A DNA stretch of 13,602 nt from Candidatus Methylomirabilota bacterium. Its GTDB lineage: Bacteria; Methylomirabilota; Methylomirabilia; Rokubacteriales; CSP1-6. Where the stretch lies: the NCBI GenBank assembly GCA_046726415.1, contig JBKPAK010000185.1:1-13602 (forward strand), given 5' to 3'. A program made the position numbers and the translations under genes. A model generated the notes under the pieces. It searched no databases. It had not been told where the DNA came from and worked only from the letters and a program-made list of their open reading frames with translations. Shown piece by piece: positions 1 to 13,602 of the stretch. How positions within the stretch are numbered: the stretch's first letter is position 1; every line of letters begins with the position of its first letter.

Positions 1-1
1 C

Positions 2-196
2 GAGATTTCCTGCTCGGAGTGCTTCGATCTCGTGCCGCAGTACGTGGATCTCGAGGTCGCGGGCCAGACCAGCGAGGCGATTCTCCCCCGGCTGCAGCAG
101 CACCTGGGGCAGTGCGGCGTCTGCCGCGAGGAATACGAGGTGCTGCGCGACCTCGTCCGGCTCGACGCCGACGGCCGCCTGCCAGCCGCCGACTGA
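2..196 (+). CDS. 3' part of zinc-binding anti-sigma factor (ZAS / zf-HC2 type), truncated by window edge
   Basis: Not in the ORF track. Frame 2 reads EISCSECFDLVPQYVDLEVAGQTSEAILPRLQQHLGQCGVCREEYEVLRDLVRLDADGRLPAAD*, with the HxxxCxxC motif (HLGQCGVC) and an upstream Cys. Confidence 0.85.
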   Translation, partial: EISCSECFDLVPQYVDLEVAGQTSEAILPRLQQHLGQCGVCREEYEVLRDLVRLDADGRLPAAD

Positions 197-265
197 CCGG
201 CGGCACCGTCGCGCCCTTTCGCTCCACGTAAGAATCCCCGTCGCCGCGTCTCTAACGGTGGAGTC

Positions 266-538
266 ATGCGCAGGCCGCTGACCGCTCGCTGTGATTACTG
301 CCGGAAGCTCCTCCGCGCGGGCCGAAGCCTGGCCGGCCTCGGCGGCACGCAGTTCGATACGGTCACCTGCCGGAAGGCGTACGTGAACACGCAGGAGTTG
401 AAGGGTCTTCAGAACGGCGTGCGCGTCGCCCGATCGCGGCTGAAAGCCGCCGTGATCGGGCGCGCGGGCGGCGCTTACCGTCGCCTCGGTGGCCGAGACT
501 GGCCTCTGGTGGAGCGCCTGCTTCGATCGCTGCTGTAA
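266..538 (+). CDS. small basic hypothetical protein with possible metal-binding motif
   Basis: GGAG upstream of ATG; co-oriented with neighbours; CDYC...FDTVTC pattern reminiscent of TRASH/FCS-type fingers. Confidence 0.55.
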   Translation: MRRPLTARCDYCRKLLRAGRSLAGLGGTQFDTVTCRKAYVNTQELKGLQNGVRVARSRLKAAVIGRAGGAYRRLGGRDWPLVERLLRSLL

Positions 539-653
539 CGCGCGCTCGATTTCGCGCGCGATTCATGCGGGAAAACGCGCGCGGTTGGTAACGTTGACCC
601 GCCGGTCCTCGGTTGGCCCACTTAAGAAGTAACAGACCCGTCGGAGGACAACC

Positions 654-1838
654 ATGCCCTCAGTGATTCCACGCATCGTCCTGTTGGTGACGTCGCTCCT
701 GGTTCTAGCGGTCGCGGTGACGCTCGGGGTGGCGAAGACATCGCGCGCGAAACCAGCCGTGGCTCCCGCTGATGGCCGATCGATTTTCCGGTTCGACACC
801 TTCGGTGACGAACAGTTCTGGACCGATACGCTGCAACTCCACACCGTGATCCAATCGTCCATCAGCCCGGTGATCGCGCTCGGCGTCGGACTCAGAGTCG
901 ACGCGTCCGCTCTCCCGCCGGGCTTCCTCGGTAGGCACGACCTGAACGATCCGGCCACGACGGTGGAGCTGATCCGCCTCAATGCGGTCGTGGGCGTGGT
1001 CGGCAAGGTCACCGGCGGTCGGCTGAAGTCGGTGGGCATCACGTGCGCGCTCTGCCATTCGACGGTCGACGACTCGGTGACGACGGGCGTCGGCAACCGA
1101 CTCGACGGCTGGGCGAATCGCGATCTCGACCCTGGTGCGATCATCGCGCTTTCGCCCGTGCTGACCGCTGCGCAGAAGGCGATCTACAACTCGTGGGGCC
1201 CCGGGAAGTACGACGCGCGCTTCAACATCGACGGCATCAGCCTGCCCGCCGTCATTCCGCCGGCGTTCGGCCTGCAGGGCGTCGGGTTCGAGACCTTCAC
1301 CGGCGACGGACCGATCTCGTACTGGAACAACTACGTCGCCGTCACCCAGATGGGCGGTCATGGCAGCTTCTCGGATCCGCGCATCGGCGTGAGCGTCACG
1401 CAGGAGCCGGACCTCGTCCCTCCCAAGCTGCCGGCCCTCCTTCAGTACCAGCTGAGCCTGAAGACGCCCCCGCCACCGCCGGGCAGCTTCGATCCGCAGG
1501 CGGCGAAGCGCGGAGAGAGGCTCTTCAAAGGTAAGGCCGCATGCGCCGCGTGCCACATTCCGCCGACGTTCACGGATGTTCTCGCCGGCGGCGATCCCAC
1601 GGTTCCGCTCCTTCACGAGCCCGACGCCGTGGGCACCGAGCCGGTCTATGCCTCCCGCAGCGCGACCAAGCGGTACCGCACGACGCCGCTTCGCGCGTTG
1701 TGGCAGCATCCGCCGTACTTTCACGACGGCAGCGCGGCTGATCTCCCCGCCGTCGTCGATCACTACGACACGTCCTTCGGGCTGGGCCTGAACGTCAGGC
1801 AGAAGGCGGATCTCGTCGAATTCCTGAAAACACTCTGA
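654..1838 (+). CDS. exported di-heme cytochrome c (bCCP/MauG/RoxA-superfamily-like)
   Basis: SD GGAGG before ATG; hydrophobic N-terminal signal/anchor; two CxxCH motifs (CALCH, CAACH); C-terminal TTPLR..PPYFHDGS motif of di-heme peroxidase-like proteins. Confidence 0.88.
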   Translation: MPSVIPRIVLLVTSLLVLAVAVTLGVAKTSRAKPAVAPADGRSIFRFDTFGDEQFWTDTLQLHTVIQSSISPVIALGVGLRVDASALPPGFLGRHDLNDPATTVELIRLNAVVGVVGKVTGGRLKSVGITCALCHSTVDDSVTTGVGNRLDGWANRDLDPGAIIALSPVLTAAQKAIYNSWGPGKYDARFNIDGISLPAVIPPAFGLQGVGFETFTGDGPISYWNNYVAVTQMGGHGSFSDPRIGVSVTQEPDLVPPKLPALLQYQLSLKTPPPPPGSFDPQAAKRGERLFKGKAACAACHIPPTFTDVLAGGDPTVPLLHEPDAVGTEPVYASRSATKRYRTTPLRALWQHPPYFHDGSAADLPAVVDHYDTSFGLGLNVRQKADLVEFLKTL

Positions 1839-1872
1839 GCGCGCTCACTGGGTGCCCGCGGCTGGATCGACG

Positions 1873-2146
1873 GTGATCGGCGCGGAAGTCCACCGAGCAG
1901 CATGGCGTCGCCGACGAAGCCAGGTCCGTCATCCGGCAGATCGATCACGCTCGGGCCTACGCTGCGGCGAAGGACTGGACCGTCAATGACGAGCACGTCT
2001 TCGCAGACGACGGTATCAGGGGCGCGGAATTCACGACGCGGCCGGGCTGCGGCGACTCATGAATTCCCTCCGTGGGCGGCGCCCGCCGTTCCAAGTCCTC
2101 ACCATGAGCGAGAAGTCGCGGCTCGGACGGGAACAGCTTGAGACCG
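1873..2146 (+). pseudogene. serine recombinase (large serine integrase-type) N-terminal catalytic-domain fragment
   Basis: From 1880: ARKSTEQHGVADEARSVIRQIDHARAYAAAKDWTVNDEHVFADDGIRGAEFTTRPG, then frameshift at ~2047 to LRRLMNSLRGRRPPFQVLTMSEKSRLGREQLET. Resolvase motifs (Y)ARxS, DxGxxG, RPG and SRLGR are present. GTG 1873 is out of frame and the gene is truncated after ~90 codons. Confidence 0.88.
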
Positions 2147-2173
2147 AGGCCCGGCCCTCAGCCGCCGGCCACC

Positions 2174-2469
2174 GTGGATCCCCGTGAATTTCTGTACTGA
2201 ACCCCCGAGGAGTCTGCCAACGAGCTCCGGGTGAGCGTCAAGACGATCTACCGGTGGGCCGCTCAGGACAGTACGCTCCCTCAGCTCGCCTGGGCACAGG
2301 GAAGGGCTCAACACTACGTTTCCCTCTTGAAAGGACCTTGAAGTGGTTGCGCCAGCGCGAGGGTCAATTGACCGAGCGTCCGTTCCGGAAACTGATGCCC
2401 TCTCGCCGTGAACCCCCTGATTTTGTTGCCATCCCATCGGAGCGCCACGGGGCATGCGCCAATTCATGA
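2174..2469 (+). pseudogene. excisionase-like winged-helix (HTH_17) DNA-binding protein remnant
   Basis: VDPREFLY*TPEESANELRVSVKTIYRWAAQDSTLP with in-frame TGA at 2198-2200, then frameshift near 2285 to RLGTGKGSTLRFPLERTLKWLRQRE. Confidence 0.78.
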
Positions 2470-2636
2470 GTCATTAGGCCGACGAAACTTCTGAAGGCCA
2501 ACGACTAATGCATCATGATTGACGAAATAACGGTACCCGGATTCGATTGCGAATTCATAGGAGTCCCGTTTCCTCCCGCCACGCCCCCCCGGGCCGCAGT
2601 CACCTGTCTTTTACAATTACAGGGCTCGGTGATGTA

Positions 2637-2665
2637 GGGCTTCGGTGAGAGGCCTCCCGAAGTCC
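2637..2665. repeat. hairpin / REP-like inverted repeat
   Basis: GGGCTTCGG-T-GAG-AGGC-CTC-CCGAAGTCC; one G-U pair when read on the + strand. Confidence 0.5.
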
Positions 2666-2738
2666 ATTCCAACGAAAAGCGGGTTCCCGACCGCTGAACC
2701 GGGCCCACGTCATCCGGGCGGTGGCGATGCTCGCGTGA

Positions 2739-2775
2739 GCGGGCCTGACTAGTCAAGGGCCCGCGCCATGCGGGC
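2739..2775. other. GC-rich hairpin downstream of the peptidase operon (possible terminator or stabiliser)
   Basis: GCGGGCC (2739-2745) pairs with GGCCCGC (2758-2764) around palindrome TGACTAGTCA. Alternative stem GCCCGC/GCGGGC at 2759-2775. No U-tract. Confidence 0.35.
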
Positions 2776-2824
2776 GTGCCTCGTCCACCGAATCGCGCCG
2801 CTCCGCAACCTGAGATGACCGGAC

Positions 2825-3049
2825 CTATTTCTTACGGCCCTTCTTGATATGATCCTTCTTGATCCGGTTGTGAAGAGCGGTTGGATCAAGGCGCGCGACG
2901 TCGTCGTCGATCTCGACCTGTACGACCTTTTGCCTTGGTCCGGCCACGAGCATGACTTGTTCCGGGCCCGATTCGCCCGCCCTGTGGCTCACCTGCCACG
3001 TGCCCAGGACATCTCCCTTGTCGTTGACAAGGACGTGAAGTATTGGCAT
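2825..3049 (-). CDS. 74-aa hypothetical protein, third gene of peptidase operon
   Basis: TAAGGAGGGAGGCG-ATG: strong SD directly after the upstream stop. Start revised from 3082 to 3049 (MPILHVLVNDKGDVLGTW...IKKGRKK). Confidence 0.8.
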   Translation of the reverse strand: MPILHVLVNDKGDVLGTWQVSHRAGESGPEQVMLVAGPRQKVVQVEIDDDVARLDPTALHNRIKKDHIKKGRKK

Positions 3050-3060
3050 CGCCTCCCTCC

Positions 3061-3309
3061 TTAGAACCCCCCGCCGCGCCATTGAAAACTGACGGTGACC
3101 GATCCGTTATTCACAACCGTTGCGAAGTACGTGAGGTGGCCGTTGCTGTCGAGGCTCTCGGCGATCTGCGTTGTTGCGAGCTCTCCCGAGGCGCCGAGCG
3201 GCTCGGCTTGGATCAGCTGCGGTCCGACGTCGCCATTGCCTCCCCAACTGAACCACCATTCCTGACTTGTACCGGGGGCGATCGTGCCCAACCCTGCTGT
3301 CCACGCCAT
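3061..3309 (-). CDS. 82-aa beta-rich protein; free-standing paralog of the upstream peptidase C-terminal domain
   Basis: GAGAGGAGGAGTG-ATG SD; 62/80 residues identical without gaps to the domain at 3323-3565. Confidence 0.92.
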   Translation of the reverse strand: MAWTAGLGTIAPGTSQEWWFSWGGNGDVGPQLIQAEPLGASGELATTQIAESLDSNGHLTYFATVVNNGSVTVSFQWRGGGF

Positions 3310-3565
3310 CACTCCTCCTCTCTCATCGTCCGCCGCCTCGCCATTGGAAGTTGACCGCGACCGATCCCTTGTTCACGACCGTGGCGTGGTACGTGAGGTG
3401 ACCGCTCGCGTCACGGTCCACGGCGATTTGCGTCGTCGCCAACTGGCTCGGCGCGTTGAGTGGCTCGGCTTGGATCAGTTGCGGCCCCACATCGCCGTCG
3501 CCTCCCCAGCTGAACCACCACTCTTGACTCGCATGGGGCGCGATCGTCCCCGAGCCGGCGGTCCA
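3061..3565 (-). repeat. diverged tandem duplication (243-bp coding units, 262-bp period)
   Basis: 3323-3565 versus 3061-3303 are collinear with many third-position changes. Confidence 0.95.
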
Positions 3566-4597
3566 GAACGGGCCGGAACGATTCCAGAGGTCGACCTCTC
3601 CACTCGGCAGATCATCGTCGAATCGGAGCGTGTGCTGACCACATTCTGTGGCGGCGTCGGTGATCGTCCAAGCCAGCGAGGGGCGGGTCGTGCCCGTCTG
3701 GATGTCGATCTCCGACATCGCCGTCTTGGGTGTGTCCGGATAGTCGGAACATTTCGTGATCCCGTAGCACTCGAGCGTCTCGACGCACCAGGTGAGTTGC
3801 GGAACGTTCTGTATCGCTAGGTTTGTATTGGCGATACCCTGGAACTGCGAGTTGTAGCTGAAGCCCGCAGCCGACTGGCCGGTCAGCGTCATCACCCCGA
3901 CGAGGACATCTCCCGGGTTCACTCCAACGAGCGTTGAGTGGAACGCAGAGCCATCGAACCCGACGTACCAACTGGCGACGGCCCAGTTGTTCCCCCCTCC
4001 GGCACCGGAAGGGCCCCACTGCAGGACAGGCTGGTAGATACCCCATGAGTTCTGGATCCCATTGAAGAGGAAAACGGTTTGACCTGAGCTCGATGGCGGC
4101 GCAGGGGGCACAGTCCATGTCGTTGTAAAGAATGAAACGGGGTTGCCTGTTCCGTTCGCCCAGGACGCATAGGTGATCCATCCGGAACCGAAGGCGGGGA
4201 GGGGCGCAGGTACTGCCCGAGCGTCCTGCTCAGTTCGAGGAGGATGAACCACGTTGCGCGGCATGAGAGGGATACCCGTTGGACGTATCTCGACGACTCC
4301 GAGGTCGGCGAGGACCTTTCCAGAGCGGTCCAGGATACGTTGATGACAATCCGTGAGGTCGAGCACTGCTTGAGGCGCCATGTGATGGACGAGAGACTTC
4401 GGCCGGAGGCCTCCTGGAGTGATCACCAGCTCCTCCGGCATGGACGCCCTCCCTTCGCCTATGCCCTGCGCCTCGCGAACCACGACGTAGGTTCCCTCGC
4501 GCGTTCGTCGGACGGTCTCGCCGGGCGCCACCGGATACACCGAGCTCCTCCGGCGCGGGCCTCCGGGCGTGATAACGACGTCATCGCTGTTGGTCAC
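3323..4597 (-). CDS. putative glutamic peptidase (G1/eqolisin-like fold) with duplicated pro-motif and C-terminal 80-aa domain
   Basis: 424-aa ORF. Motifs GWITYASW, TTWTVPPAP, QTVFLFNGIQ, IYQPVLQWG, ASWY, GDVLVGVM and VETLECY resemble the G1 pattern (WTVP, W.GID, lQ.G, AWYE, GD.i, EWIVE) with candidate Gln/Glu dyad. Alternative ATG with strong SD at 4441. The CDS is certain; the function is inferred. Confidence 0.8.
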   Translation of the reverse strand: MTNSDDVVITPGGPRRRSSVYPVAPGETVRRTREGTYVVVREAQGIGEGRASMPEELVITPGGLRPKSLVHHMAPQAVLDLTDCHQRILDRSGKVLADLGVVEIRPTGIPLMPRNVVHPPRTEQDARAVPAPLPAFGSGWITYASWANGTGNPVSFFTTTWTVPPAPPSSSGQTVFLFNGIQNSWGIYQPVLQWGPSGAGGGNNWAVASWYVGFDGSAFHSTLVGVNPGDVLVGVMTLTGQSAAGFSYNSQFQGIANTNLAIQNVPQLTWCVETLECYGITKCSDYPDTPKTAMSEIDIQTGTTRPSLAWTITDAATECGQHTLRFDDDLPSGEVDLWNRSGPFWTAGSGTIAPHASQEWWFSWGGDGDVGPQLIQAEPLNAPSQLATTQIAVDRDASGHLTYHATVVNKGSVAVNFQWRGGGR

Positions 4598-4702
4598 AAC
4601 GAACCCCGACGGACGCCTCGTCCAAGAGCATCAACAGCGGACCTGTCCCCGCTGGTGGCTCACGGACCAAGAGGAAGGCGGAATCATGCTCCAACGCTAG
4701 CT

Positions 4703-4711
4703 ATCGTACCA
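4703..4711 (-). promoter_or_regulatory. possible extended -10 promoter element for peptidase operon
   Basis: TGGTACGAT (TGn-TAnnnT) on the minus strand ~105 bp upstream of GTG 4597; no clear -35. Confidence 0.25.
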
Positions 4712-5171
4712 AAGCAGGACTACCCGTTCACATCTGAACGGGCAAGTGGACGTGATCGTAGTCTGAGCCGTCGGTTACCTCGGATTCAGCATCGAGCTCC
4801 GCCGTGCGGCTGACGACGAAGCCCGTGCTGGCCTACGTCGTTCAGTGAGAAGGCGACGCTGTCGCGGGGGGCGGGCGGCAAGCGCCACCCGCTGACGCGT
4901 GGGGGGAGCGCCGACTTCTGAGAAGGCGAGCTTGTGTCGATAGGTTAGCGCAAGGAGTCTGCCGAAGAGACATCGGATCAGAACGCGCGCATAGTGGTCT
5001 GCTGTGCACCGGCGCTCCAGCGAGCGCCCGAACCTGTACACGGAGCCCAACCCACAAAGTCCTCCTCGCCAGCTTCCCGTGCGGCCCCAGCCGGCAGCGT
5101 AGACGACGAAGGTGCGTCTTGCGGCGCACCTCCGTCTCCGGCCGCGCGCGATCTTCGATCGCGATTCGCGT

Positions 5172-6830
5172 CTAGGGCTTGCCGAGGGCGTCCGCACCGA
5201 GGAGCGCCGGATCGTCCTGCAGATGCACATCACAGTGGAAGCTTGCCTCGTTGTTGGTGCTCCCGGCGCCGTTGTAGACGAGGACGTCGGGATATTTGCA
5301 GATCTTGCGCGTACGGGTCGCGCCGTCGCCGAGATTCTGTGTGGCGACGACGTGGTCAGGCGCGATCCCGTGCTCGACCCAGTTGACCAGGGCGTCGAAC
5401 AGCACGTTCGTGTCGATTTGCGGGCCTTTTCCACCGCCACAGTGGGCGTTGTTCGGGTACGGGAAGAAGCGGTAGAACTCCTGCAGGGCCGCCATGCCGC
5501 TGGCCGCCGACGGCTTTCCCGCGCCCGAGCCCTTCATCTTCTCGGCGGCGCGATTGTAGTAGTCGTAGCTGCCGCGCGGGAAGATCAACTGGTCGAACAG
5601 GCCGTGATACATGATCATCTTGCCGCCGCCGTTTCGGAACGCGTGGAGGTTCGCCTGGTCGGTGCCGATGGCGTCATGGAAGAGGGCCTGCGAGGTCGCG
5701 AAGTCGTTGACGAACGAGGCCTCCGTCACCGTGTGCCAGTCGAAGGTCGGATCCTGCTTGATCCAGTATCGGAAGTGGTCGACGGTAATCGAGAACGGGT
5801 TGGTGCCCGCCAGGCCGCTCAGCGACGCGCCTCGCTCGAGCCCGAACCAGATCTTATCGCCCTTGGCGTTCACCGGTCCGTTCCAGATCTTGTTGACCGC
5901 CGCCGCTTCCGCCGGGGTGAGGCAGTTCGCCGGGCCTCCGGGATTGCCGGTGCAGACGAACGCGGTGGCATCGTAGTGACACTGGCGAGGGTCCTGAAGG
6001 ATCCCGTCCATGATGCCGTCGATGGCATCGCAGGCAGCGATCGAGGCATTGGTCACGGCCGCGAGCTTGGCGGTCGAGATCGGGCCGCCGAGGTCCTGGA
6101 ACATCACGATCTGAGGCCAGAGCTCGGAGGGGATGAAGCGGTCCCAGTTGAAGGCCGGCGCGCCTGCGAGGATACCGTCGTAGTCCTTCGGGAACGTCTG
6201 CGCCTGCTGATGGCCTTGACGCCCACCCGTGGAGCAGCCCGTCCAGTATCGACGGGTCGGGGCGCTTCCATAGTACGTGTTGGCGATCGCCGTGCCCCAT
6301 ACGTGTTGCGCGTGTATGCCGTCCACCGCGAAGTCTTTGATCAATCCCCAGTTCAACGTGTTGTCCGGATTGAGCGCGAACGAACCTCCGGGTGTGGAAT
6401 GGCCGGTGTCGGTCGCCGAGCCGACATAGCCGAGATTGGTCGCCGCCGTGACGCCGCCCACCGAGCCGACATAGCCGCCGCCGCCGAGATCTCGTTGCTT
6501 GCCGTTCCAGGCTCCTTGCACGCCGCCCGTTCCGCCGTCCGCCAGGCTGAGTGGAAGTCCCACGCGGACTCTGATTTGCTCCGACTGGCCCGGCAAGTAT
6601 CCGGCCGCCTCTCCCGACTCGCTGGAGACGGTGATGTTGACCTGACAGTAGGCGGCGTTGGTCCCCGCGGCGGGAACGAGCGCGCTCGTCACCGCGCTGA
6701 GGTGAGGATTTCCGACCAGACCTAAGGCCGGATCGGTCCCGAGCGCCACGCACGTCGGCAATGCGGAGGCCGCCGTCGAGGACAGCGCCAGCGACAGCAG
6801 CACGATAGCGGAGAAGACGAGTGCGAGCAT
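5172..6830 (-). CDS. secreted tannase/feruloyl esterase family alpha/beta hydrolase
   Basis: GCSTGG nucleophile elbow, Asp in HGLFDQLI, AHCGGG (CS-D-HC motif), WNG..GGGG, TDTGH, YDGILAGAPA; signal peptide. SD GGGAGG before ATG 6830; alternative in-frame start 6917. Confidence 0.95.
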   Translation of the reverse strand: MLALVFSAIVLLSLALSSTAASALPTCVALGTDPALGLVGNPHLSAVTSALVPAAGTNAAYCQVNITVSSESGEAAGYLPGQSEQIRVRVGLPLSLADGGTGGVQGAWNGKQRDLGGGGYVGSVGGVTAATNLGYVGSATDTGHSTPGGSFALNPDNTLNWGLIKDFAVDGIHAQHVWGTAIANTYYGSAPTRRYWTGCSTGGRQGHQQAQTFPKDYDGILAGAPAFNWDRFIPSELWPQIVMFQDLGGPISTAKLAAVTNASIAACDAIDGIMDGILQDPRQCHYDATAFVCTGNPGGPANCLTPAEAAAVNKIWNGPVNAKGDKIWFGLERGASLSGLAGTNPFSITVDHFRYWIKQDPTFDWHTVTEASFVNDFATSQALFHDAIGTDQANLHAFRNGGGKMIMYHGLFDQLIFPRGSYDYYNRAAEKMKGSGAGKPSAASGMAALQEFYRFFPYPNNAHCGGGKGPQIDTNVLFDALVNWVEHGIAPDHVVATQNLGDGATRTRKICKYPDVLVYNGAGSTNNEASFHCDVHLQDDPALLGADALGKP

Positions 6831-7039
6831 TGGTGCCTCCCATCGTTGTGGCGTATGCAGAGGTGGTTGCCTCGTGTCCGGCTTAGGTGGCAACCGGGAT
6901 TTCCGATATGGACCCATGTCTCCCCTCCCTCGTGGCGTTGAACGGGCGGATCATCCCATCGCTCAGCTCGTTCATCCCTCCCCCCGGGGTGAGGGAAGTC
7001 ATGCTCGCGACGCATGAACCGTCCGCGGCCGGCCCAGCG

Positions 7040-7187
7040 GCCGCGGGCCGCAGCGTCGTGGCCGCATAGACGCTGGAGCGGGGCACCCGGAAGACCGCGC
7101 AGATCATCGTAAGCGGATACCGCCGTCCGGTCGCCGGACTCACGCCCGCCCTCATCGCCTGTGCTTCCTCCACTCGTCCGCGAAGCG
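7040..7187 (-). mobile_element. IS3-family fragment (orfA end / orfB start)
   Basis: RFADEWRKHRR* overlaps (ATGA at 7155-7152) MRAGVSPATGRRYPLTMICAVFRVPRSSVYA, a typical IS3 OrfB N-terminus (Y.l..iC.v..v.RS..Y). No integrase core. Confidence 0.65.
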
Positions 7188-7299
7188 CTTCTATGGAAAG
7201 CTGTTGCCAAATCCTTCGCCCGGATGTTCTCCGTTCTCTGTCCAACCGATCGTGTCCGTGAGCGATCTCGAGGATCACCCTCCATTCGCGGCGCCCCGG

Positions 7300-7869
7300 C
7301 GGCCGCGCTTGGCTCAGCACCCGAGGCACGATGGTCAGTAACCGACGTGCCGTTGCGATCTTGGCCGGGTTCGGCCCCTTTCGGTGCCGGCGCCGCTCGT
7401 AGTCGGCGCGCAGCTCCCGATCCGTCTTCACTGCGGGGCGCACGGCTTTCAACCAACGCCCAGCGGAGCCACCTGTTCCCCTGCTTTGTGAGGCGCCCGT
7501 GAAAGACCCTGCCCCCGGACGCATAGACGGCCGGTACGAGGCCAGCATATCCGCACAGGTTTGCGGGGCGGGCAAACCGGGTGACGTCGCCGAGCTCGTT
7601 CACGATGCGTACGGCGAAGAACGGCCCGATACCCGGGATGCTACGGACCCAGCGTACGCGCTCATCCCCGCTCCCGAGCCGGCGCACGAGCCGGTCGCTC
7701 TGCCGGACCCGCGCCCGGACGGCTTCGAGCAGGATCATCTCGCTGTCAACAGCTGCCGTTCCGCGGGCGATAGCGGAACGGCCTGGAGCCAAGCCCAACC
7801 CGCCTGGCCAAAGAGATCCGTCCACTGCCCAGCCTGCTCCCGGATCTCCGGCTGACGATCGATTAGCGC
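7300..7869 (-). pseudogene. IS110-family transposase, C-terminal half, frameshifted
   Basis: ALIDRQ..TDLFGQAGWAWL / SIPGIGPFFAVRIVNELGDVTRF..LCGYAGLVPAVYASGG..HGRLTKQGNRWLRWALVE / AVRPAVK..KGPNPAKIATARRLLTIV. Frameshifts near 7750 and 7447; DEDD RuvC domain absent. Confidence 0.92.
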
Positions 7870-8081
7870 CGACGAGCCTCTGGCTTCAGAGCGCAACGCC
7901 GATTTTCCCCGAGGTGTTGGGGATGGCACGGGAACCCCCGCGTTGCGGGCTGAGGAAGGCACACGTAGGCTGAGCCCATGCCGGGCACACGCTGCGCACC
8001 CCGAAGTCTCCCAACATCCACCCTGCTGTGCCCCCACCGCTCGTTAGAGACTTCGGCGCCCGCGGCGCACGCTGGCAGAGG

Positions 8082-8618
8082 TCAGCGGGCGAAGGCGCAG
8101 ATCGCCCAAACGAACAGGGCGTAGGGCCCATCATGCGTCGCTCGCGCCGCCCATCCGATCGGCGGGACATCTTCTGTGAACGCCGTACCGTAGGGATGGG
8201 TACCGATCAGGATTCGATCGCTGAACTGGCCCCCCTCGTTGATCCACACGCCGCCCCCGAGTGGCACCTTCCCAGCAGGACACGGGACCCTGTGGAAGGC
8301 GTCTCCGTCCGCCGCAATGAACTCCACGACCACTTCGTAGCCGCTGACGCCGCTCGCCCCTGCTGGCCCGGGAGGCCCTGGAACACCCTGGGGCCCCTGC
8401 GGTCCAGGTTGCCCTGCGGCGTTCCAAGACACCTCGGTCTCGTTGTTCTTACACTGTCCGGCACCGGAGGCCAAACGGAGGTCGCCGCCATTATTCTTGG
8501 CGCACGCGTAGATCTGCTGCGCCGCCGCTTCCGTCCCGAGGCCGAGAACTGCCAGGACCAAGGCACCAGCTAGAGCACTCACGAACCACTGTTCACTCCC
8601 GATGCTTCGATGACTCAT
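8082..8618 (-). CDS. exported collagen-like protein (178 aa)
   Basis: SD GGAGGAG before ATG 8618; signal peptide ending AAA-Q; IYAC..G.LRL..C..NETEVSWN module; ~8 Gly-X-Y triplets; C-terminal SGYEVV..CPAGK..LGGG..GW..VWAICA domain. Confidence 0.88.
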   Translation of the reverse strand: MSHRSIGSEQWFVSALAGALVLAVLGLGTEAAAQQIYACAKNNGGDLRLASGAGQCKNNETEVSWNAAGQPGPQGPQGVPGPPGPAGASGVSGYEVVVEFIAADGDAFHRVPCPAGKVPLGGGVWINEGGQFSDRILIGTHPYGTAFTEDVPPIGWAARATHDGPYALFVWAICAFAR

Positions 8619-8920
8619 GCCGACTCCTCCATCAAGTGACCTAGCGCACGAGCCAGCCGTGCGCCTTCGTGTGGCGGTGGTCAAGAGCAAGGCTCGGGCC
8701 ACGCTAGGGAGGACAGCCAAGTAAAGATGGAATCGAGCGCTTGGTGCTGTCAGACAGGCGCGCGGGTTCACTCGATTCGTGCAATTCGCACGGTGGCGAG
8801 GCGCCAAGGTCGCGTTGAGGCAGTGTGTTTCTCGAACATATCGTCCGGGGCCTCGGCGCCTCGGCTACCATCCGGACATGCCAAACCATCCAGAACCCAA
8901 AGCCACCAACACCAGCCGAG

Positions 8921-9222
8921 ATGCGCCCCGCTGGTTGCTGCCGGCCCCGACGATCGCCTCACTCGGCGATGACGTCCCAGAGCGCCGCATGCTCTGCGCC
9001 TGGCTCGACTCCTGGTCCGGCTCGCGTGAGGTGATCGACGCGATGAACGCCCACGGCTATGACGCCCGGCTCAGGCAATCGCCTTTCGGTTGGTGGGCGG
9101 AGTTCTGCGCTCCCGAGTCAGCACTCTCCCGAAGTGGCTCGGCCAAGGCCACGACGCCGAGCCAGGGAGGGCGGTTCGGTTCCGCGACGCTGGATGCACT
9201 CAGGCGGGATAGGGTCGAGTGA
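8921..9222 (+). pseudogene. degenerate hypothetical protein (WLDSWSG family), copy 1
   Basis: PERRMLCAWLDSWSGSREVIDAMNAHGYDARLRQSPFGWWAEFC, then an alternate frame gives SRVSTLPKWLGQGHDAEPGRAVR, returning to TLDALRR. The start is uncertain. Confidence 0.55.
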
Positions 9223-9315
9223 GCCGCACGGTGGCTAAGCGCCCATCCTCACGCACAACCGACCAGCCCGAGCTGGCGTTCTCACCGAAGAAGGCCTCTA
9301 ATCTCGGCGGAGGAG

Positions 9316-9498
9316 GTGGCACGGAAGGCGGTCGAGCGCCGGCCGACCACACCATCCGGGCGGGTCAGCTACAAGTTCACGGTTGCGCTGCCTCGCGACC
9401 TGGCCGAGAGGCTCACGGCCCGTGCCATCCGCGAGGGGAAGAGCCTCGAAGGGCTCGTTGCGGAAATCCTCGAGGCGGAGGCGCGGCGACGCGGGTGA
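9316..9498 (+). CDS. ribbon-helix-helix (CopG/Arc-like) DNA-binding protein
   Basis: Alternating strand YKFTVALP, helix RDLAERLTARAIREG, turn KS, helix LEGLVAEILE. Confidence 0.78.
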   Translation: MARKAVERRPTTPSGRVSYKFTVALPRDLAERLTARAIREGKSLEGLVAEILEAEARRRG

Positions 9499-9547
9499 CA
9501 TTTCGTTCCGCATCGGGCTGACTCCCTCGCGAGCCCGACCCGGTCAC

Positions 9548-9683
9548 CGCCTGAATCAGGCTGATGGTCTTGGGCCGAGTTTGCCGGGACGAGGTCAACC
9601 CGCTGCCCAAATGGAATCGGGAGGGCCGTTACGCAACACCCTGGCAGGCCGTGCAGCGGGCGGCGCCGGACACGTTGCGGCCG
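9548..9683 (+). pseudogene. second, partial copy of the same hypothetical family (C-terminal part)
   Basis: RLNQADG / WAEF / CRDEVNPLPKWNREGRYATPWQAVQRAAPDTLR aligns with copy 1 (WAEFC..LPKW..P.RAV..D.LR). Confidence 0.55.
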
Positions 9684-10471
9684 ACCGACGGCGACCGTGG
9701 CGGAGCGGCTCACGTGTGGTCGGCTCCCGCAGGATCGCGGCCCAGCGCTCACCCGAATCCACGTCGCTGAGTTCCTTCACGGTCCATCACGGCGGTGGTC
9801 ATAGCAATGGATGCCTCCAAGGCCGGCAGGTCGGCGTGAGCGACGTCGCAGTCCCGGAAAGGATGTGCTCTGCCCACCGGGTGACCATGACCACCCATCT
9901 CGGTGGTCACGATGCCGATGTCGGTGACCACGATCGACCGTCCGGGTGCCCACGATGCGCCGATCTACCCGCCCACGATCGGCCGAAATGCGCACCTGTG
10001 TGCGCTGTGCCTACGGCTCCTGAGAGGGAGAACGTCCGAGTACCGAGCGTTACTACGCTTAATGCGGACTACGCTCTCCGGGAAAAAGGCGAAGGAGGTT
10101 TGTCATGACACTTCCTGACGGGCAAGGGCCGCACCTGGACCCGGATGTATCGCTTGCTCTCGGAGAGCGAAGTGGTTCATCGTTCGGTTCGAGCCTTTCA
10201 TGCGAGATGTCGTGAGTCTCACTTTTTCTCTCGCCTCGCCCAGCACCACGGAGGCCGAGGCGTTGTTGCACCGCTGGGAACCGGCGTCACCACGCTCAGG
10301 CCCTAGCTCTGTGGCGGTGCCTGGCGGCGCGCGCCCACACGGCGCTAGGGATCGTGTAGCGATCGGGCGGTTGAGGCCGGTTCTCAGGTACCATCGTGAG
10401 GATCGTTCATCTGCTGAAACCGCTGGCTCTGGCCAGGAACTGGGTAGAACCGGCGCGTCGGGAGGTCCCAG

Positions 10472-10825
10472 ATGAGGTGTCCCCGGTGCCAGCACGAGAA
10501 CCGTGAGGGCCGCCGCTTCTGCTCGAGGTGTGGGGCCGGCTTGACTGGCGTCTGTCCGCCATGCGACTTCACCAACGAGCCGGGCGACGAGTTCTGTGGA
10601 GGATGTGGCGCTCGTCTTGGCGCTGAGCAGCCTGCCCAAACAAAGTTCACCTCCCCTGACATCTACACCCCCAGGCACCTCGCCGAGAAGATCCTCACCT
10701 CCAAGGCCGCCCTGGAGGGCGAGCGGTAAGCAGGTCACCGTCCTCTTCCCCGACCTGAAGGGCTCGATGGAGCTGCTCGCCGACCGGGATCCGGAGAAGC
10801 ACGGCGGATCCTGGATCCGGTGTTG
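10472..10825 (+). pseudogene. double zinc ribbon + adenylate/guanylate cyclase protein, frameshifted and truncated
   Basis: SD GGGAGG; four CxxC pairs; YTPRHLAEKILTSKAALEGER, +1 insertion, KQVTVLFPDLKGSMELLADRDPE, frameshift, ARRILDPVL, then abrupt loss of similarity. Confidence 0.92.
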
Positions 10826-10865
10826 CCGCCCGGGTCCTGCGGCCGAAGGGGAGTCTGTGTTTCTT

Positions 10866-11981
10866 ATGCGCTGGCGGTGGTGGAAACGAACTAGACCCGC
10901 GAGGGCCTTTTTGTCTATGGCATCCACCACAGTCCTCACCTCAATTTTGTTGCTCTTTATATTCAGCGCCGGCCAGCTGGCGCATGCCAACGGCCCGAAG
11001 GGTCAGGTGGTGCTGGCCAGCGGTGATCTGCGCCGCGATGTCTTCGATCGGATCAGATATTTTCAGCCGGGGACGGATCGTTACCACATCCCGTCGCAGG
11101 AAGACCTCGACACCTTTCGCCAAGCGGCCATTGCCACACTGCGGGGTGATCTCGAGATGGCCGCCCGCCTGCTACCTGAACCGTACAAAGCCGTCATCTT
11201 CACCGATACTTCGACAAAAAAGCAGAAGCCCTCCAAGATTTACCATCTGCTGATCGAAGCCGATGTGACGCCGACCGGAATCATACCGCGGCAGGTCCAG
11301 GATCTGGTCCACGGCTGGGGCACTTACTTCTTCGATCCGCAACCAGTGCGCGAACTGGCCATCGAATCTCCGCATCCGCAAGACGATCGCTTCACCGAAA
11401 CGCAAGGCTTCGAAATTTTCACCCAGCTCGCCGCTCGCAGCTTTCTTCTCGCTGGCTCGCGCCGCTGCGCAAGCGCGACCGCGACCTCCTGCACTAATCC
11501 CGGCTTCGGAGGGTGTGGGCCGATAACGTCCGTCGCGGACGCGGCCCACGGCGGCTTCGGTGCGGGCCGTGTGAACGCCTTTCAGGTTGTCCACGAGGAA
11601 GTCGTCAGAACTTTGCCGAACACGATCACGATTCAGCTTCACGGCAACATACAATGTTCGAACCTGGATGTCTTTCTCAGCAACTCGGGGAGTGGTCGGA
11701 CCGTGCTACCTGGTGGCAACATCGCCCGCCTGAGAAAGAACCTTGTCGCGCGCAAACTCATCGTCGGGCTGTGCGGGCAGAGCACGTGCACTCTGTGCGG
11801 GACGACTAGCGTCCAGGGTCGCTGGACCAATGGCTCACGGACCAATCCCTGCAACGTCGCGCGGTCCGTACCCCAGATCGAGCGGTTCATCCATGTCGAG
11901 CAGAATGACCGAATGCGCCGGCAGCCAGAAAACCGTGAGAAACTGATCGACGCGATCGCGGCCACCAAGTTTATTCGGTAG
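10866..11981 (+). CDS. exported Cys-rich putative Zn-dependent amidohydrolase (PghP / N-formylglutamate amidohydrolase-like motifs)
   Basis: Basic n-region, hydrophobic h-region and AHA-N cleavage site; motifs GWGTY, IESPHPQDD, DAAH, IQLHG, GTTSVQGR, FIHVEQ. Alternative start 10917. Confidence 0.75.
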   Translation: MRWRWWKRTRPARAFLSMASTTVLTSILLLFIFSAGQLAHANGPKGQVVLASGDLRRDVFDRIRYFQPGTDRYHIPSQEDLDTFRQAAIATLRGDLEMAARLLPEPYKAVIFTDTSTKKQKPSKIYHLLIEADVTPTGIIPRQVQDLVHGWGTYFFDPQPVRELAIESPHPQDDRFTETQGFEIFTQLAARSFLLAGSRRCASATATSCTNPGFGGCGPITSVADAAHGGFGAGRVNAFQVVHEEVVRTLPNTITIQLHGNIQCSNLDVFLSNSGSGRTVLPGGNIARLRKNLVARKLIVGLCGQSTCTLCGTTSVQGRWTNGSRTNPCNVARSVPQIERFIHVEQNDRMRRQPENREKLIDAIAATKFIR

Positions 11982-12043
11982 CCCGTAAGGGCTCCGTTAC
12001 CACAGGATGCCTGGACATCAGCCAGGATAGAGAGCGCGCCTAG

Positions 12044-12827
12044 GTTTCCTCCGCGTGGGTTAGATCCTCATTCAACACTAAACCAGGAATGACGGTCCTC
12101 ACTCGGGATGGTACATCGGTGTTCGTAGCCGATCGAGACGGTGAAAACGTTCTGATTATTGATCTAGAGACGGAAACGGTCAGTAATATTGTTGCCGTAG
12201 GATCGACCCTGAGCGAAACCTATCCCCAAGGAGTCTCCCTCCCCGACTCCCCCTTCATCAGCGTCTTTGAAGAAAGCGACGAAATCGGCGGTCGGGGTGC
12301 CCCCCATGGCCGTTTCACCCGATGGACGCTTCTTGTATATAGGTCCTACTCGGGCCGATGAAGCAGGACAGCGCACACCGTTAGCTGTTCTAAGATTGGC
12401 TGATAACGCATTAACGGTGATCAGCGGGGAAGGAATTCGCTTCCCGATCTGTGTAGAACCGAACCCTCTGCATTCCGAGCTCTACGTTTCGGGAATCGAT
12501 GAAACGGTCGTCGTGAATCTTATCACGCACGCAGTAAGCCACAGCCTTGGTCCTGGCCGGTTGACCGGACTCAAAGTCGCCCCTAATGGGGAATGGGCGG
12601 CCGGCGTCGATGTATTCTATGAGAAGATCTTCGTTTATGATCTCCACAAGAAAGAGATCCAAAAGATTCCTTTTGCCGGACTAGCCCAGGAAGATGAGGA
12701 GTTTGACAAGGTACCAGTGTTAGTAGATGCCTCTTCCCAAGTGGCGGTCGTCGCCGATATACCAGCAAACCAAGTGGTTGTACTGAAAGTGGACCGGCCT
12801 AAGAAGAGAAACGGGATCGGACTCTGA
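12044..12827 (+). pseudogene. YVTN/YncE-type beta-propeller, probably 5'-truncated, split by a frameshift
   Basis: Blades LTRDGTSVFVAD..VLIID, AVSPDGRFLYI, VAPNGEWAA..IFVYD. ORFs 12089-12361 and 12267-12827 join if one C is removed from C6 at 12300-12305. Confidence 0.75.
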
Positions 12828-12835
12828 AGTATTCC

Positions 12836-12976
12836 ACATAAGTCCAGCGACTCATTCCGCTCCCTGATCTGCTCCCACACCTTCACGCCGTACTTGTTGT
12901 GCCTCGTCACCAAACGTTCGGCCCGCAGCTCGGCGAAGAACTCCTCGCCGCAGTCGTCGGCGTCCAGCCACCTCAG
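12836..12976 (-). pseudogene. phage terminase large subunit (lambda gpA-type) C-terminal fragment
   Basis: LRWLDADDCGEEFFAELRAERLVTRHNKYGVKVWEQIRERNESLDLC matches the gpA nuclease tail (F.QL.AE....W......RNEaLDC). Confidence 0.82.
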
Positions 12977-13009
12977 TCCCGCGCTTGCAGCGAGTGCTCG
13001 TCGACCATC

Positions 13010-13387
13010 TCAACGTCCACTCCTTCGGATCTCGGCCACGTCACCATCGACGGTGAGCTTTACCAACGTGATCATTTGCAATGCTTCTCTCGTCGTTCCT
13101 GCAGTGGCCCGGACACCAAACAGCTCCCTCGTCGTCCACACTCGCCCGCGGTTGACTCCCTCGCGACCGACCATGCTCGCGTCCCGCTCCTCCGGCACAA
13201 ACCAGAGGGTGACGTCGAGCCAGGGAACGCGGACCTCCAGAAGCGGGCCCTCCCGGGCGAACTGGTCGAGCGGCATGGCGAGAATTGTTTCGAGGTGATA
13301 ATTCTGGATGACCGCCCCTCCACCACGGACGGTGCCCGCAACGAGTCTCTGGGCGAGCGCGTCAAGCGTGAGCCCTGGGCCGCCCAT
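13010..13387 (-). CDS. phage/satellite-associated hypothetical protein (start uncertain, possibly degenerate)
   Basis: Protein-like core LEVRVPWLDVTLWFVP..GVNRGRVWTTREL..KLTVDGDVAEI; lies between iteron-like repeats and the terminase fragment, on the same strand. Confidence 0.55.
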   Translation of the reverse strand: MGGPGLTLDALAQRLVAGTVRGGGAVIQNYHLETILAMPLDQFAREGPLLEVRVPWLDVTLWFVPEERDASMVGREGVNRGRVWTTRELFGVRATAGTTREALQMITLVKLTVDGDVAEIRRSGR

Positions 13388-13420
13388 TGATGTACGCTTC
13401 GCCCTCGTTCCTTCCGCGGT

Positions 13421-13550
13421 GCGTTGACACGTTAACTATCCCTTTGTTCTTGGTTGCTTACAACGCACGTCGTGCCAGCGTGTCAACGCTTCGCGAAAAT
13501 TGCGTAAATGCCCGTCGCCATAGCGTTTGCAACGCTTGTCAACGCTTGTC
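13421..13550. repeat. iteron-like repeat cluster (core CAACGC)
   Basis: AACGCTTGTC x2 tandem (13531-13550); CGTGTCAACGC (13479-13489) with perfect inverted copy GCGTTGACACG (13421-13431); CAACGC at 13461; AT-richer spacers. Confidence 0.75.
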
Positions 13551-13602
13551 ACGGATTTCTGATACCGGGGCCGCGCCCACGCCTTCAAGCGCCCCCGGGG
13601 TG

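Follow-up and report, generated by a model that had tools for sequence, protein, structure and literature searches.

We describe here a three-gene module on contig JBKPAK010000185.1 of a Candidatus Methylomirabilota assembly. The window analysed is this whole contig of 13,602 nt, which belongs to an assembly of 7.6 Mb in 352 contigs. Gene 1 of the module is very probably a homologue of the glutamic-peptidase fold, its last 80 residues are encoded again as a free protein by gene 2, and a small gene 3 follows directly behind gene 2. The best explanation of the whole, which we hold at a little better than even, is a latent glutamic-type peptidase controlled through a C-domain surface that the enzyme and the free protein share. 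This explanation starts from observations on gene structure, the duplication, the fold, the conservation of residues and operon, and purifying selection on both copies of the C-domain.

Gene arrangement and duplication

The three genes lie intact and co-oriented on the minus strand (Table 1; all coordinates are window positions 1–13,602). The stop codon of gene 1 (TGA, 3323–3325) is separated by a 13-nt gap (3310–3322) from the ATG of gene 2, and the stop codon of gene 2 (TAA, 3061–3063) by an 11-nt gap (3050–3060) from the ATG of gene 3. Purine-rich runs resembling Shine–Dalgarno (SD) sequences precede gene 2 at 3312–3320 (GAGGAGGAG) and gene 3 at 3052–3060 (GGAGGGAGG). As listed, the open reading frame (ORF) of gene 3 reaches 3082; since its homologues begin at the second Met, the start was set at 3049. 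Within gene 1, the sequence GGGAGGG (4447–4453) lies 5 nt upstream of an internal ATG (Met53, 4441–4439) that coincides with the start point of many homologues, and gene 1 may be made in a long and a short form.

Residues 345–423 of gene 1 and the gene 2 product are identical at 62 of 79 positions (E 2e-41), and the corresponding DNA forms a 236-nt direct repeat with 77% identity (3068–3303 versus 3330–3565). This duplication is far above chance. A hydropathy check of the first 60 residues found no signal-like hydrophobic segment in the three proteins: the maximum Kyte–Doolittle mean over 19 residues was 0.32 for gene 1, 0.99 for gene 1 read from Met53, 0.63 for gene 2 and 0.44 for gene 3. An earlier note on this DNA, made from the letters alone, had listed three co-oriented intact genes with 13- and 11-nt gaps and SDs for genes 2 and 3, the re-encoding of the last 80 residues of gene 1 by gene 2, and the lack of a recognizable signal in all three proteins. 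The first two are confirmed by the sequence, and the third agrees with hydropathy means that do not exceed 0.99, at the level of hydropathy only.

Table 1. Positions of the module, of the parts of gene 1 and of a repeat shared with other contigs
Feature	Position	Strand	Remarks
Gene 1	3323–4597	−	424 aa, GTG start; from the ORF listing
Gene 2	3061–3309	−	82 aa, ATG start; from the ORF listing
Gene 3	2825–3049	−	74 aa, ATG start; start set at the second Met
Gene 1, N-terminal repeat 1 (aa 5–48)	4454–4585	−	extra copy of the TPGGxR...PG motif; internal repeat; protein conserved in full-length homologues
Gene 1, prosegment-like all-beta region (aa 53–134)	4196–4441	−	begins at the internal ATG; near-invariant TPGGxRxxSxVH motif
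Gene 1, catalytic-type beta-sandwich (aa 135–340)	3578–4195	−	Gln189, Gln193 (QPVLQWG), Glu273/Glu276 (ETLE)
Gene 1, fused C-domain (aa 345–424)	3326–3565	−	six-strand beta-sandwich, end WRGGGR
Dispersed repeat shared with other contigs	10453–10829		C333, C196, C205, C247, C5, C97 (twice), C139

Fold of gene 1

The AlphaFold2 model of gene 1, built on a 50-sequence alignment, reached a mean predicted local distance difference test score (pLDDT) of 87.4 and a pTM of 0.79, with pLDDT of 95–98 across residues 60–110 and 140–300. When this model was searched against the PDB with Foldseek, scytalidoglutamic peptidase (SGP) came first (E 1.6e-6, TMt 0.61), followed by neprosin and CPAVM1. Alignment of Foldseek's top chains with VIA-align gave Z 17.5, 17.4 and 16.9 for the SGP entries (root mean square deviation (rmsd) 2.7–2.9, 174–180 residues), 16.3 for neprosin, 13–14 for CPAVM1 and YncM (YncM 13.1), 12.1–12.4 for HC7, 11.7 for aspergilloglutamic peptidase (heavy chain only) and 10–11 for glucanases. 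In the best SGP alignment (2ifr, Z 17.5, rmsd 2.9, 180 residues), residues 135–340 of the model lie on residues 1–206 of the chain, and the eqolisin sandwich spans the whole mature domain. A VIA-align search over 48,161 representative chains, independent of Foldseek, placed neprosin first (Z 16.2) and gave the neprosin zymogen 15.5; in the zymogen alignment, residue 55 of the model falls on chain residue 112, in the pro-domain linker. The eqolisin/neprosin glutamic-peptidase fold, which had been proposed for the central domain, is borne out by SGP and neprosin at the top of these searches of the predicted structure.

Conserved residues and relation to known peptidase families

Residue conservation was examined in 266 relatives aligned to the core profile. 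Gln193 is kept in 263 of 265, Gln189 in 260 of 265 and Glu276 in 252 of 257 (all at least 98%), together with Trp210 (263/265), Gly195 (262/265) and Gln321 (243/255). Of 257 relatives, 212 have Glu and 31 have Gln at position 273, and Glu276 is the sole invariant acidic residue of the central domain. The Gln of YQPVLQ and the Glu of ETLE, suggested earlier as the pair to mutate, are thus among the most conserved residues of a large family.

Membership of family G1 as defined by its profile does not extend to gene 1, because gene 1 has no PF01828 match and its relatives gave only sub-threshold ones, in 2 of 50 (P0234, E 8e-4, 19.3 bits; P0317, E 0.028, 14.3 bits; curated cut-off 22.3 bits). With the same profile, 2 of 251 related genomes yielded true G1 peptidases, at 112–122 bits. 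The profile was calibrated with the true G1 peptidase of locus L059, from one of these genomes, in which the Trp of W-x-V-P falls at profile position 22 and the catalytic Gln at 53; this matches the SGP numbering Q53/E136 in the accessible part of PMC6154417. By linear mapping, P0234 and P0317 have W-x-V-P at position 22 and the glycine of N-G-I at 41 (SGP G41), both in accord with L059, two conserved Gln at ~53 and ~57–61, and E-x-x-E at ~137–144, and the order of the motifs W-x-V-P, G-I-x, Q-x-G, W and E is that of true G1 sequences. Gln189/193 and Glu276 lie within a few positions of 53 and 136, a linear mapping that fits either Gln and either Glu (273 or 276).

Direct comparisons were less informative. 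With hhalign, the family profile could not be aligned meaningfully to two true G1 peptidases (probability 0.24), hmmsearch with the core profile aligned only the W-x-V-P stretch of the same two proteins, and PDB searches with the gene 1 protein and with the profile returned nothing relevant. Neither Neprosin (PF03080) nor Neprosin_AP matched gene 1 or 50 relatives, and where family G3 has two catalytic Glu, the gene 1 family has one invariant Glu and an E/Q position. Of the two marks of a secreted G1 proenzyme, a prosegment-like region is present and a signal-like segment is absent by hydropathy. Homology at the level of the fold is well supported, together with a Gln/Glu set at the expected places. 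A putative active peptidase that uses Glu276 with Gln193 or Gln189 is a reasonably probable reading of these residues.

A separate observation concerns a genome of the same family as the host (G084), which encodes a true PF01828 peptidase (L060:1411–2577, E 9e-32) with a 150-residue N-terminal extension and without an obvious signal peptide. Signal-less glutamic peptidases may be commoner in these bacteria than assumed.

Family and N-terminal region of gene 1

Gene 1 itself matches no Pfam (E up to 1), NCBIfam or PHROG family and no PDB sequence; the only PHROG matches for proteins of the module have E >0.08. Its relatives are numerous. A word-indexed search with 8,000 scored candidates returned 898 proteins at E ≤0.001, and an exhaustive search of 1.84 billion representatives at 50% identity returned 2,551 clusters at E ≤0.001, 1,432 at ≤1e-10 and 419 at ≤1e-30. 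These relatives are labelled 'hypothetical protein', their named hosts include Actinoplanes (among them A. subtropicus) and Branchiibius, and the family matches no Pfam model at threshold. Because most matches span residues 53 to ~340 of gene 1, the conserved unit consists of the TPGGxRxxSxVH segment and the central domain. Behind this core some relatives have no further part, some carry the 80-aa C-domain, and others continue into long parts with DUF346, FG-GAP or GH43-like signatures.

In a sample of 267 family proteins, 247 of them with a full-length core, the C-domain is carried by 89. A TPGG-like motif precedes the core in 212 of the 247, and a hydrophobic run of at least 10 residues precedes that motif in only nine. 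In gene 1 the motif region is present twice (residues 5–48 versus 55–98, 13 of 44 identical, E 1e-5). Residues 53–134 were read as a prosegment because the neprosin zymogen aligns from the linker that bears Lys118, and whether they act as one is in our view evenly balanced. According to the accessible part of PMC9343461, this Lys118 is a 'latency plug' on the catalytic Glu of neprosin.

Fused and free C-domains and gene 3

The gene 2 family comprises 93 clusters of ~82 aa, with a homologue in Streptomyces chrestomyceticus, and the copy in the window ends in WRGGGF. Within loci, the fused and the free copy differ by a synonymous distance (dS) of 0.43 to saturation and a nonsynonymous distance (dN) of 0.10–0.27 (32 loci); hence the two C-domains are old paralogues, both under purifying selection. 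Constraint was compared across the module in 18 loci with complete parts and core identity <95% (153 pairs), in which the mean pairwise identity was 0.76 for free gene 2, 0.69 for the fused C-domain, 0.65 for the core and 0.45 for gene 3. The free copy was more conserved than the fused one in 130 of the 153 pairs.

An invariant D-x-G-P-Q-L-I-Q...P loop and a W-R-G-G tail occur in free and fused copies alike. The two kinds were compared column by column in 29 free and 29 fused copies, non-redundant and of exactly 80 residues; L031, L035, L043–L048, L050, L052, one artefact row, rows of other lengths and duplicates had been dropped. The last residue is the sole column that separates the kinds, with F in 28 and Y in one of the free copies and R in 28 and K in one of the fused copies, and N25, E43 and L53 are invariant in the free copy only. 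A maximum-likelihood tree of 70 C-domains has no split into a fused and a free clade, with eight changes of label, at least four of them forced by well-supported branches. Concerted evolution or gene conversion of the two copies was considered and set aside as unproven: with only 80 columns and within-locus dS of at least 0.43, the mixed tree is not read as gene conversion.

The model of gene 2, from a 44-sequence alignment, has six strands and a pLDDT of 84.2. Foldseek gave it no match at ≤1e-3 in the PDB or BFVD, and the best row of a full VIA search had Z 7.2, the background level of the tool. An R-pyocin fibre tip and the YPM mitogen head these rows, followed by C-terminal jelly-rolls of peptidases (Tk-SP, KP-43, the collagen-binding domain (CBD) of collagenase, PPC) at Z 5.7–7.0, again at background. 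In Pfam no PPC or H-type lectin match was found among 44 gene 2/C-domain members, and for the families of genes 2 and 3 it returned nothing beyond scattered matches at E ≥0.01. The protein atlas returned only gene 2's own family, the nearest named clusters being H-type lectins at 0.83, below the 0.9 line; this lead to H-type lectins (PF09458) gained no support from the other searches, with Foldseek E ~1, no Pfam match and no place among the 50 best VIA rows. As the fold, Pfam and atlas searches gave no match above background outside its own family, gene 2 is best described as a small beta-sandwich of the accessory type that lacks an assigned family. The fast-evolving gene 3 likewise has no Pfam or atlas assignment. 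Because a word-indexed protein search for it gave only two near-identical proteins, its family was recovered only through synteny, and the homologues found are 33–54% identical to the gene 3 of the window. PADLOC assigned none of its families to the three proteins or to the L048 protein described below.

Conservation of the operon

In metagenome contigs scanned with patterns of the gene 2 family, 354 stretches matched, of which 54 encode a relative, giving 53 loci; seven of these start inside gene 2 or end before it, which leaves 46 informative ones. In 37 of these 46 soil-metagenome loci, a fused C-domain with R/K end is followed by a free copy with F/Y end; the peptidase core is visible in 33 of the 37 and cut off by the contig edge in the other four. 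According to the gene 3 profile, gene 3 stands directly after the last C-domain in 51 of the 53 loci, the others being L013, which has none, and L049, which ends earlier. A metagenome-assembled genome (MAG) of Actinomycetes (L003) has the same three genes in the same order, with a gene 1 that is 65% identical. Clustering of all flanking ORFs revealed no fourth gene common to unrelated loci. Thus, the co-occurrence of the three genes that the earlier note had left to a neighbourhood search is borne out by dozens of unrelated soil contigs that keep one gene order.

The other nine informative loci are variants of this arrangement. In one lineage (L044–L046; P0021 is a protein of this type), gene 1 carries two in-frame C-domains with an F end and is followed by gene 3 and then by a further free copy. 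In L047, gene 1 ends in F and is followed by gene 3 without a free copy. L048 encodes a 337-aa protein (L048:1970–2983) in which an unrelated N-part of ~255 aa, without Pfam or PADLOC match, is joined to the C-domain, and a free copy and gene 3 follow; its two C-domain copies are sisters (support 100/98). A 1,072-aa protein in L031, with signal-like N-terminus, three LTD domains and one fn3 domain, runs into a C-domain and is followed by gene 3. This C-domain hardly differs from the free copy of L016, with the junction at its residue 6, so that the L031 contig may be chimeric. L012 and L050 have gene 2 and gene 3, but no gene 1 is seen in the upstream sequence available (624 and 511 nt), and L052 looks decayed. 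From these very few loci, the C-domain, free copy and gene 3 suggest a unit that is able to sit behind different N-parts.

Locus L036 has two peculiarities. Its gene 3 ORF (L036:1679–2053) extends by ~50 residues similar to the TPxGP...PGETV repeat at the N-terminus of gene 1, which might represent a fusion or the beginning of a second gene of the gene 1 type, and its free gene 2 is split over two frames.

Comparison with known systems

The closest counterparts of gene 1 are the eqolisins of family G1 (SGP, 2IFR/2IFW/1S2B; aspergilloglutamic peptidase, 1Y43). Gene 1 resembles them in the two-sheet beta-sandwich across the mature enzyme, in the W-x-V-P, G-I-x, Q-x-G and W motifs, which have the order and spacing of a true G1 peptidase, in one invariant Glu and invariant Gln residues on predicted cleft strands, and in an N-terminal prosegment-like region. 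However, the structural alignment has only 15% identity, gene 1 lacks a PF01828 match and, by hydropathy, a signal peptide, and position E69 of SGP is Val or Ala in its family. Moreover, its N-terminal segment is different, longer and all-beta with TPGGxR, and it has an extra C-terminal domain.

With neprosin of family G3 (7ZVA/7ZU8), gene 1 shares the fold (Z 15.4–16.3), the alignment of the zymogen from the pro-domain linker, an all-beta pro-domain joined to the catalytic sandwich and probably a basic residue close to where the Lys118 plug lies. In neprosin, an essential Gln and Trp stand beside the catalytic acid, as far as the accessible part of PMC9343461 describes, and the gene 1 family has an invariant Q-W pair. 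On the other side, identity is 7–9%, no Neprosin or Neprosin_AP match was found, and neprosin, an enzyme secreted into acid fluid, works with two Glu (accessible part of PMC9343461). HC7 of Bacillus cereus, a di-glutamate mucinase with CBM5 (8PMU/8PN3; accessible part of PMC13003899), also has a glutamic-type sandwich followed by a small binding module, and its alignment runs into the C-domain of gene 1 (model 136–381, Z 12.1–12.4). In contrast to gene 1, HC7 is secreted, and its Z is lower; a free copy of its binding module is not described in that part of PMC13003899.

The C-domain is comparable with PPC and collagen-binding jelly-rolls (Tk-SP 3AFG, KP-43 1WMD, ColG 1NQD, 5SV5), which are small C-terminal sandwiches on peptidases and align over 70–74 residues at Z 5.7–7.0. 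These Z are at library background, however, and Pfam gave no PPC match. To our knowledge, such domains are not encoded again as free proteins. Domains that occur both free and fused are known elsewhere. Phage lambda C/Nu3 and the herpesvirus protease and assembly protein are pairs of protease and scaffold that share a C-terminal part through nested genes, and in the long and short chaplins of Streptomyces, which form amyloid, a domain is made free in excess and also fused to an anchor. These systems are like the present one in logic only, in that a fused form joins the assembly of the free form, and they have no known relation to it in sequence or fold.

Neither a literature search of main texts without supplements nor Pfam, NCBIfam, PHROGs and PADLOC yielded a description of the gene 1 family or of the three-gene set, in agreement with the remark in the earlier note that no described system was recognized in it. 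Within a known fold and catalytic class, the enzyme represents a new and very large family variant, and the linked free domain and gene 3 are without a described counterpart.

Proposed working and alternatives

According to our model, the gene 1 product would be latent in the manner of a zymogen and would belong to a large, unannotated bacterial family with the two-sheet glutamic-peptidase sandwich of G1, G3 and HC7. Its catalytic pair would consist of Gln193 or Gln189 of the QPVLQWG strand and Glu276 of the ETLE strand. The all-beta N-terminal segment with TPGGxR may pack on the enzyme as a prosegment, and it probably lays a basic residue on the catalytic Glu, as in neprosin. The last 80 residues may be an accessory beta-sandwich of the kind common at the C-termini of peptidases, binding a ligand or a partner. 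Gene 2 would provide an old paralogue of this domain as a separate protein from its own ribosome-binding site, and gene 3 a small partner translated right behind it. Free and fused domains would most likely use the same conserved surface, with the D-x-G-P-Q-L-I-Q loop and the W-R-G-G-G tail, and the free protein may associate or compete with the tail domain of the enzyme, and so set where or when the peptidase acts. In this model, peptidase activity, the role of the prosegment and any contact among the three proteins are what we infer.

Several results weigh against it. For gene 1 itself no match was found in Pfam, NCBIfam or the PDB sequences, and the profile comparisons with two true G1 peptidases yielded nothing usable at the sequence level. 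The counterparts of Q53 and E136 appear ambiguous, either Gln189 or Gln193 and either Glu273 or Glu276, with Gln at 273 in 31 of 257 relatives. The predicted fold also occurs in non-peptidases, such as a Ustilago lectin-like protein (Z 15.1) and YncM (13.1), and the predicted fold of gene 2 has no match above background (best Z 7.2, no Foldseek match at ≤1e-3). In addition, known G1 and G3 enzymes are secreted and act at acid pH; here no signal-like segment is apparent from the sequences, and a hydrophobic run occurs in only 9 of 247 relatives. That genes 2 and 3 provide a binding or assembly partner which shares the surface of the fused domain is, together with the scaffold arrangement considered next, an even proposition at best and perhaps somewhat less.

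In such a scaffold-and-cargo arrangement, the main idea of the earlier note, the 82-aa protein would form a homo-oligomer (ring, filament or shell) that takes in a few enzymes by their C-domains, gene 3 would be an assembly factor or cap, and the peptidase would be one possible cargo. We consider this unlikely. The free copy is indeed the most conserved part (0.76 against 0.65 for the core), with N25, E43 and L53 invariant where fused copies vary, and its own SD allows its amount to differ from that of the enzyme; the cassette is preceded by an unrelated N-domain in L048 and by a secreted LTD/fn3 protein in L031, and fused and free copies do not form two clean clades (eight label changes, at least four forced, among 70 rows). 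However, the PDB, BFVD and VIA searches matched the fold of gene 2 to no known subunit of a shell, pilus or filament, the L031 contig is possibly chimeric, and within-locus dS of at least 0.43 argues against ongoing homogenization, in a tree of only 80 columns. A variant, which we think rather less probable still, makes the C-domain, free domain and gene 3 a portable, previously undescribed cassette of soil bacteria for assembly or targeting: the 82-aa protein would be a homo-oligomeric platform that recruits C-domain enzymes, the Phe/Arg end would set polarity or stoichiometry of the assembly, and gene 3 would be a chaperone. The cargo would then be a signal-less glutamic peptidase here and an unrelated 255-aa domain elsewhere.

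The free domain, gene 3 or both might instead silence a non-secreted peptidase in the cytoplasm, as inhibitor or immunity proteins, with the flexible GGG tail lying in the non-primed subsites as a product mimic, through the C-terminal Phe of the free copy or, in cis, the Arg of the fused one. Such a function would resemble that of staphostatins, which are cytoplasmic and encoded behind staphopains. It would suit the lack of signal peptides by hydropathy, the tight operon with small downstream genes, and a sole kind-specific position at the very last residue. In neprosin crystals the C-terminal tail fills subsites P6–P1 as a product mimic, and Lys plugs the catalytic Glu (accessible part of PMC9343461). 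Yet in L048 this pair of free domain and gene 3 stands behind an N-domain that is not a peptidase, L012 and L050 have the pair without gene 1 in the upstream sequence available, and gene 2 is the slowest-evolving part, whereas inhibitors usually outpace their enzyme; we regard inhibition as a doubtful explanation. With the exchanged cargo in L048, the fusions in L044–L047 and the constraint on the free copy, which is the strongest in the module, a binding or assembly role fits somewhat better than a peptidase-specific inhibitor. Least probable among these alternatives is that gene 1 is no peptidase at all, and is a concanavalin-type lectin or glycan-acting protein whose C-domain, with gene 2, serves as carbohydrate-binding module in a glycan-recognition set. 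A Ustilago lectin-like protein (Z 15.1), a putative sugar hydrolase (13.0) and GH16/GH43-associated sandwiches (8–11) are among the structural neighbours, distant family members have DUF346, FG-GAP or GH43-like C-terminal parts, and the nearest named atlas clusters to gene 2 are H-type lectins, below the line at 0.83. But glutamic peptidases came first in three fold searches, conservation falls on two Gln and a single invariant Glu, which linear mapping places on the pair of strands that carry the dyad in G1 enzymes, PF01828 is the sole catalytic family touched by any member, and H-type lectins lie outside the 50 best VIA rows of gene 2.

Host and surroundings of the module

The window contig has the lowest G+C content of the 319 contigs of at least 8 kb in its assembly (63.8% versus a mean of 67.5%, standard deviation 1.1) and ranks fifth of 319 in tetranucleotide distance. 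Gene 2 was found in none of 250 other genomes of the assembly's phylum and in none of 400 sampled genomes from the class of the L003 MAG. Relatives of gene 2 were found neither in viral contigs nor in plasmids, and plasmids likewise gave no near match to the window. Over window positions 1633–7543 (5,911 nt), a contig from a MAG labelled Actinomycetota shows 99.78% identity, and near-identical DNA occurs in soil metagenomes from at least five studies, in one of which a 2,349-nt contig covers exactly 2545–4893 and breaks at both ends. A dispersed repeat at 10453–10829 recurs, as stretches of 134–370 nt with 80–89% identity, in at least eight other contigs of the same assembly (Table 1), which favours that the window contig belongs to its assembly. 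The module is rare and patchy, and either foreign to the present host or mis-binned (horizontal transfer, mis-binning or a wrong label).

Just upstream of gene 1, positions 4861–4939 give an 80-nt match (92.5%) to contig C291 of the same assembly, and this place coincides with the point at which soil-metagenome contigs of run X1 break or diverge (loose ends 4859–4933). As for terminal repeats flanking the module, a 17-nt pair at 2208 and 4953 with 88% identity was judged to be chance, and none was convincing. No sigma-70-like promoter was found for the module, the only terminator-like site, at 2678–2695, is not above chance, and the window contains no Rfam family. Short contigs from RNA-labelled libraries map to 4344–4574 (X20), 2754–2904 and 2935–3085 (X18), and 3467–3750 (X19). 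They were not counted as transcription, because DNA carry-over is possible and they do not show strand or transcript ends.

Upstream of the module lies a gene for a tannase/feruloyl-esterase (5172–6917, minus strand; PF07519, E 2.7e-86). It is overlapped by an IS110-type ORF (6722–7825, minus strand) that has only the Transposase_20 part (residues 60–126) and is probably a remnant. Of the mobile genes of the region, most of which the earlier note calls broken, this ORF is the one covered here. A 394-aa ORF at 654–1838 (plus strand) has weak cytochrome-c-type signatures (PF13442, E 2.8e-4; RoxA-like, 6e-3), both below cut-off.

Significance

Among the catalytic classes of proteases, none is smaller or less studied than the glutamic peptidases, and what is known of them comes mostly from fungi that secrete acid, one thermoacidophilic bacterium, pitcher plants and a single mucinase. 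More than 2,500 clusters from soil bacteria with the same fold and Gln/Glu set, unannotated and without a signal, would considerably enlarge this class and would raise the question of what role such an enzyme has at cytoplasmic pH. There is practical interest as well, as neprosin is under study as a gluten-degrading enzyme (accessible part of PMC9343461). A free copy of the tail domain that is strictly linked to the enzyme and more conserved than it also offers a simple, testable case in which a domain that occurs both free and fused may control an enzyme.

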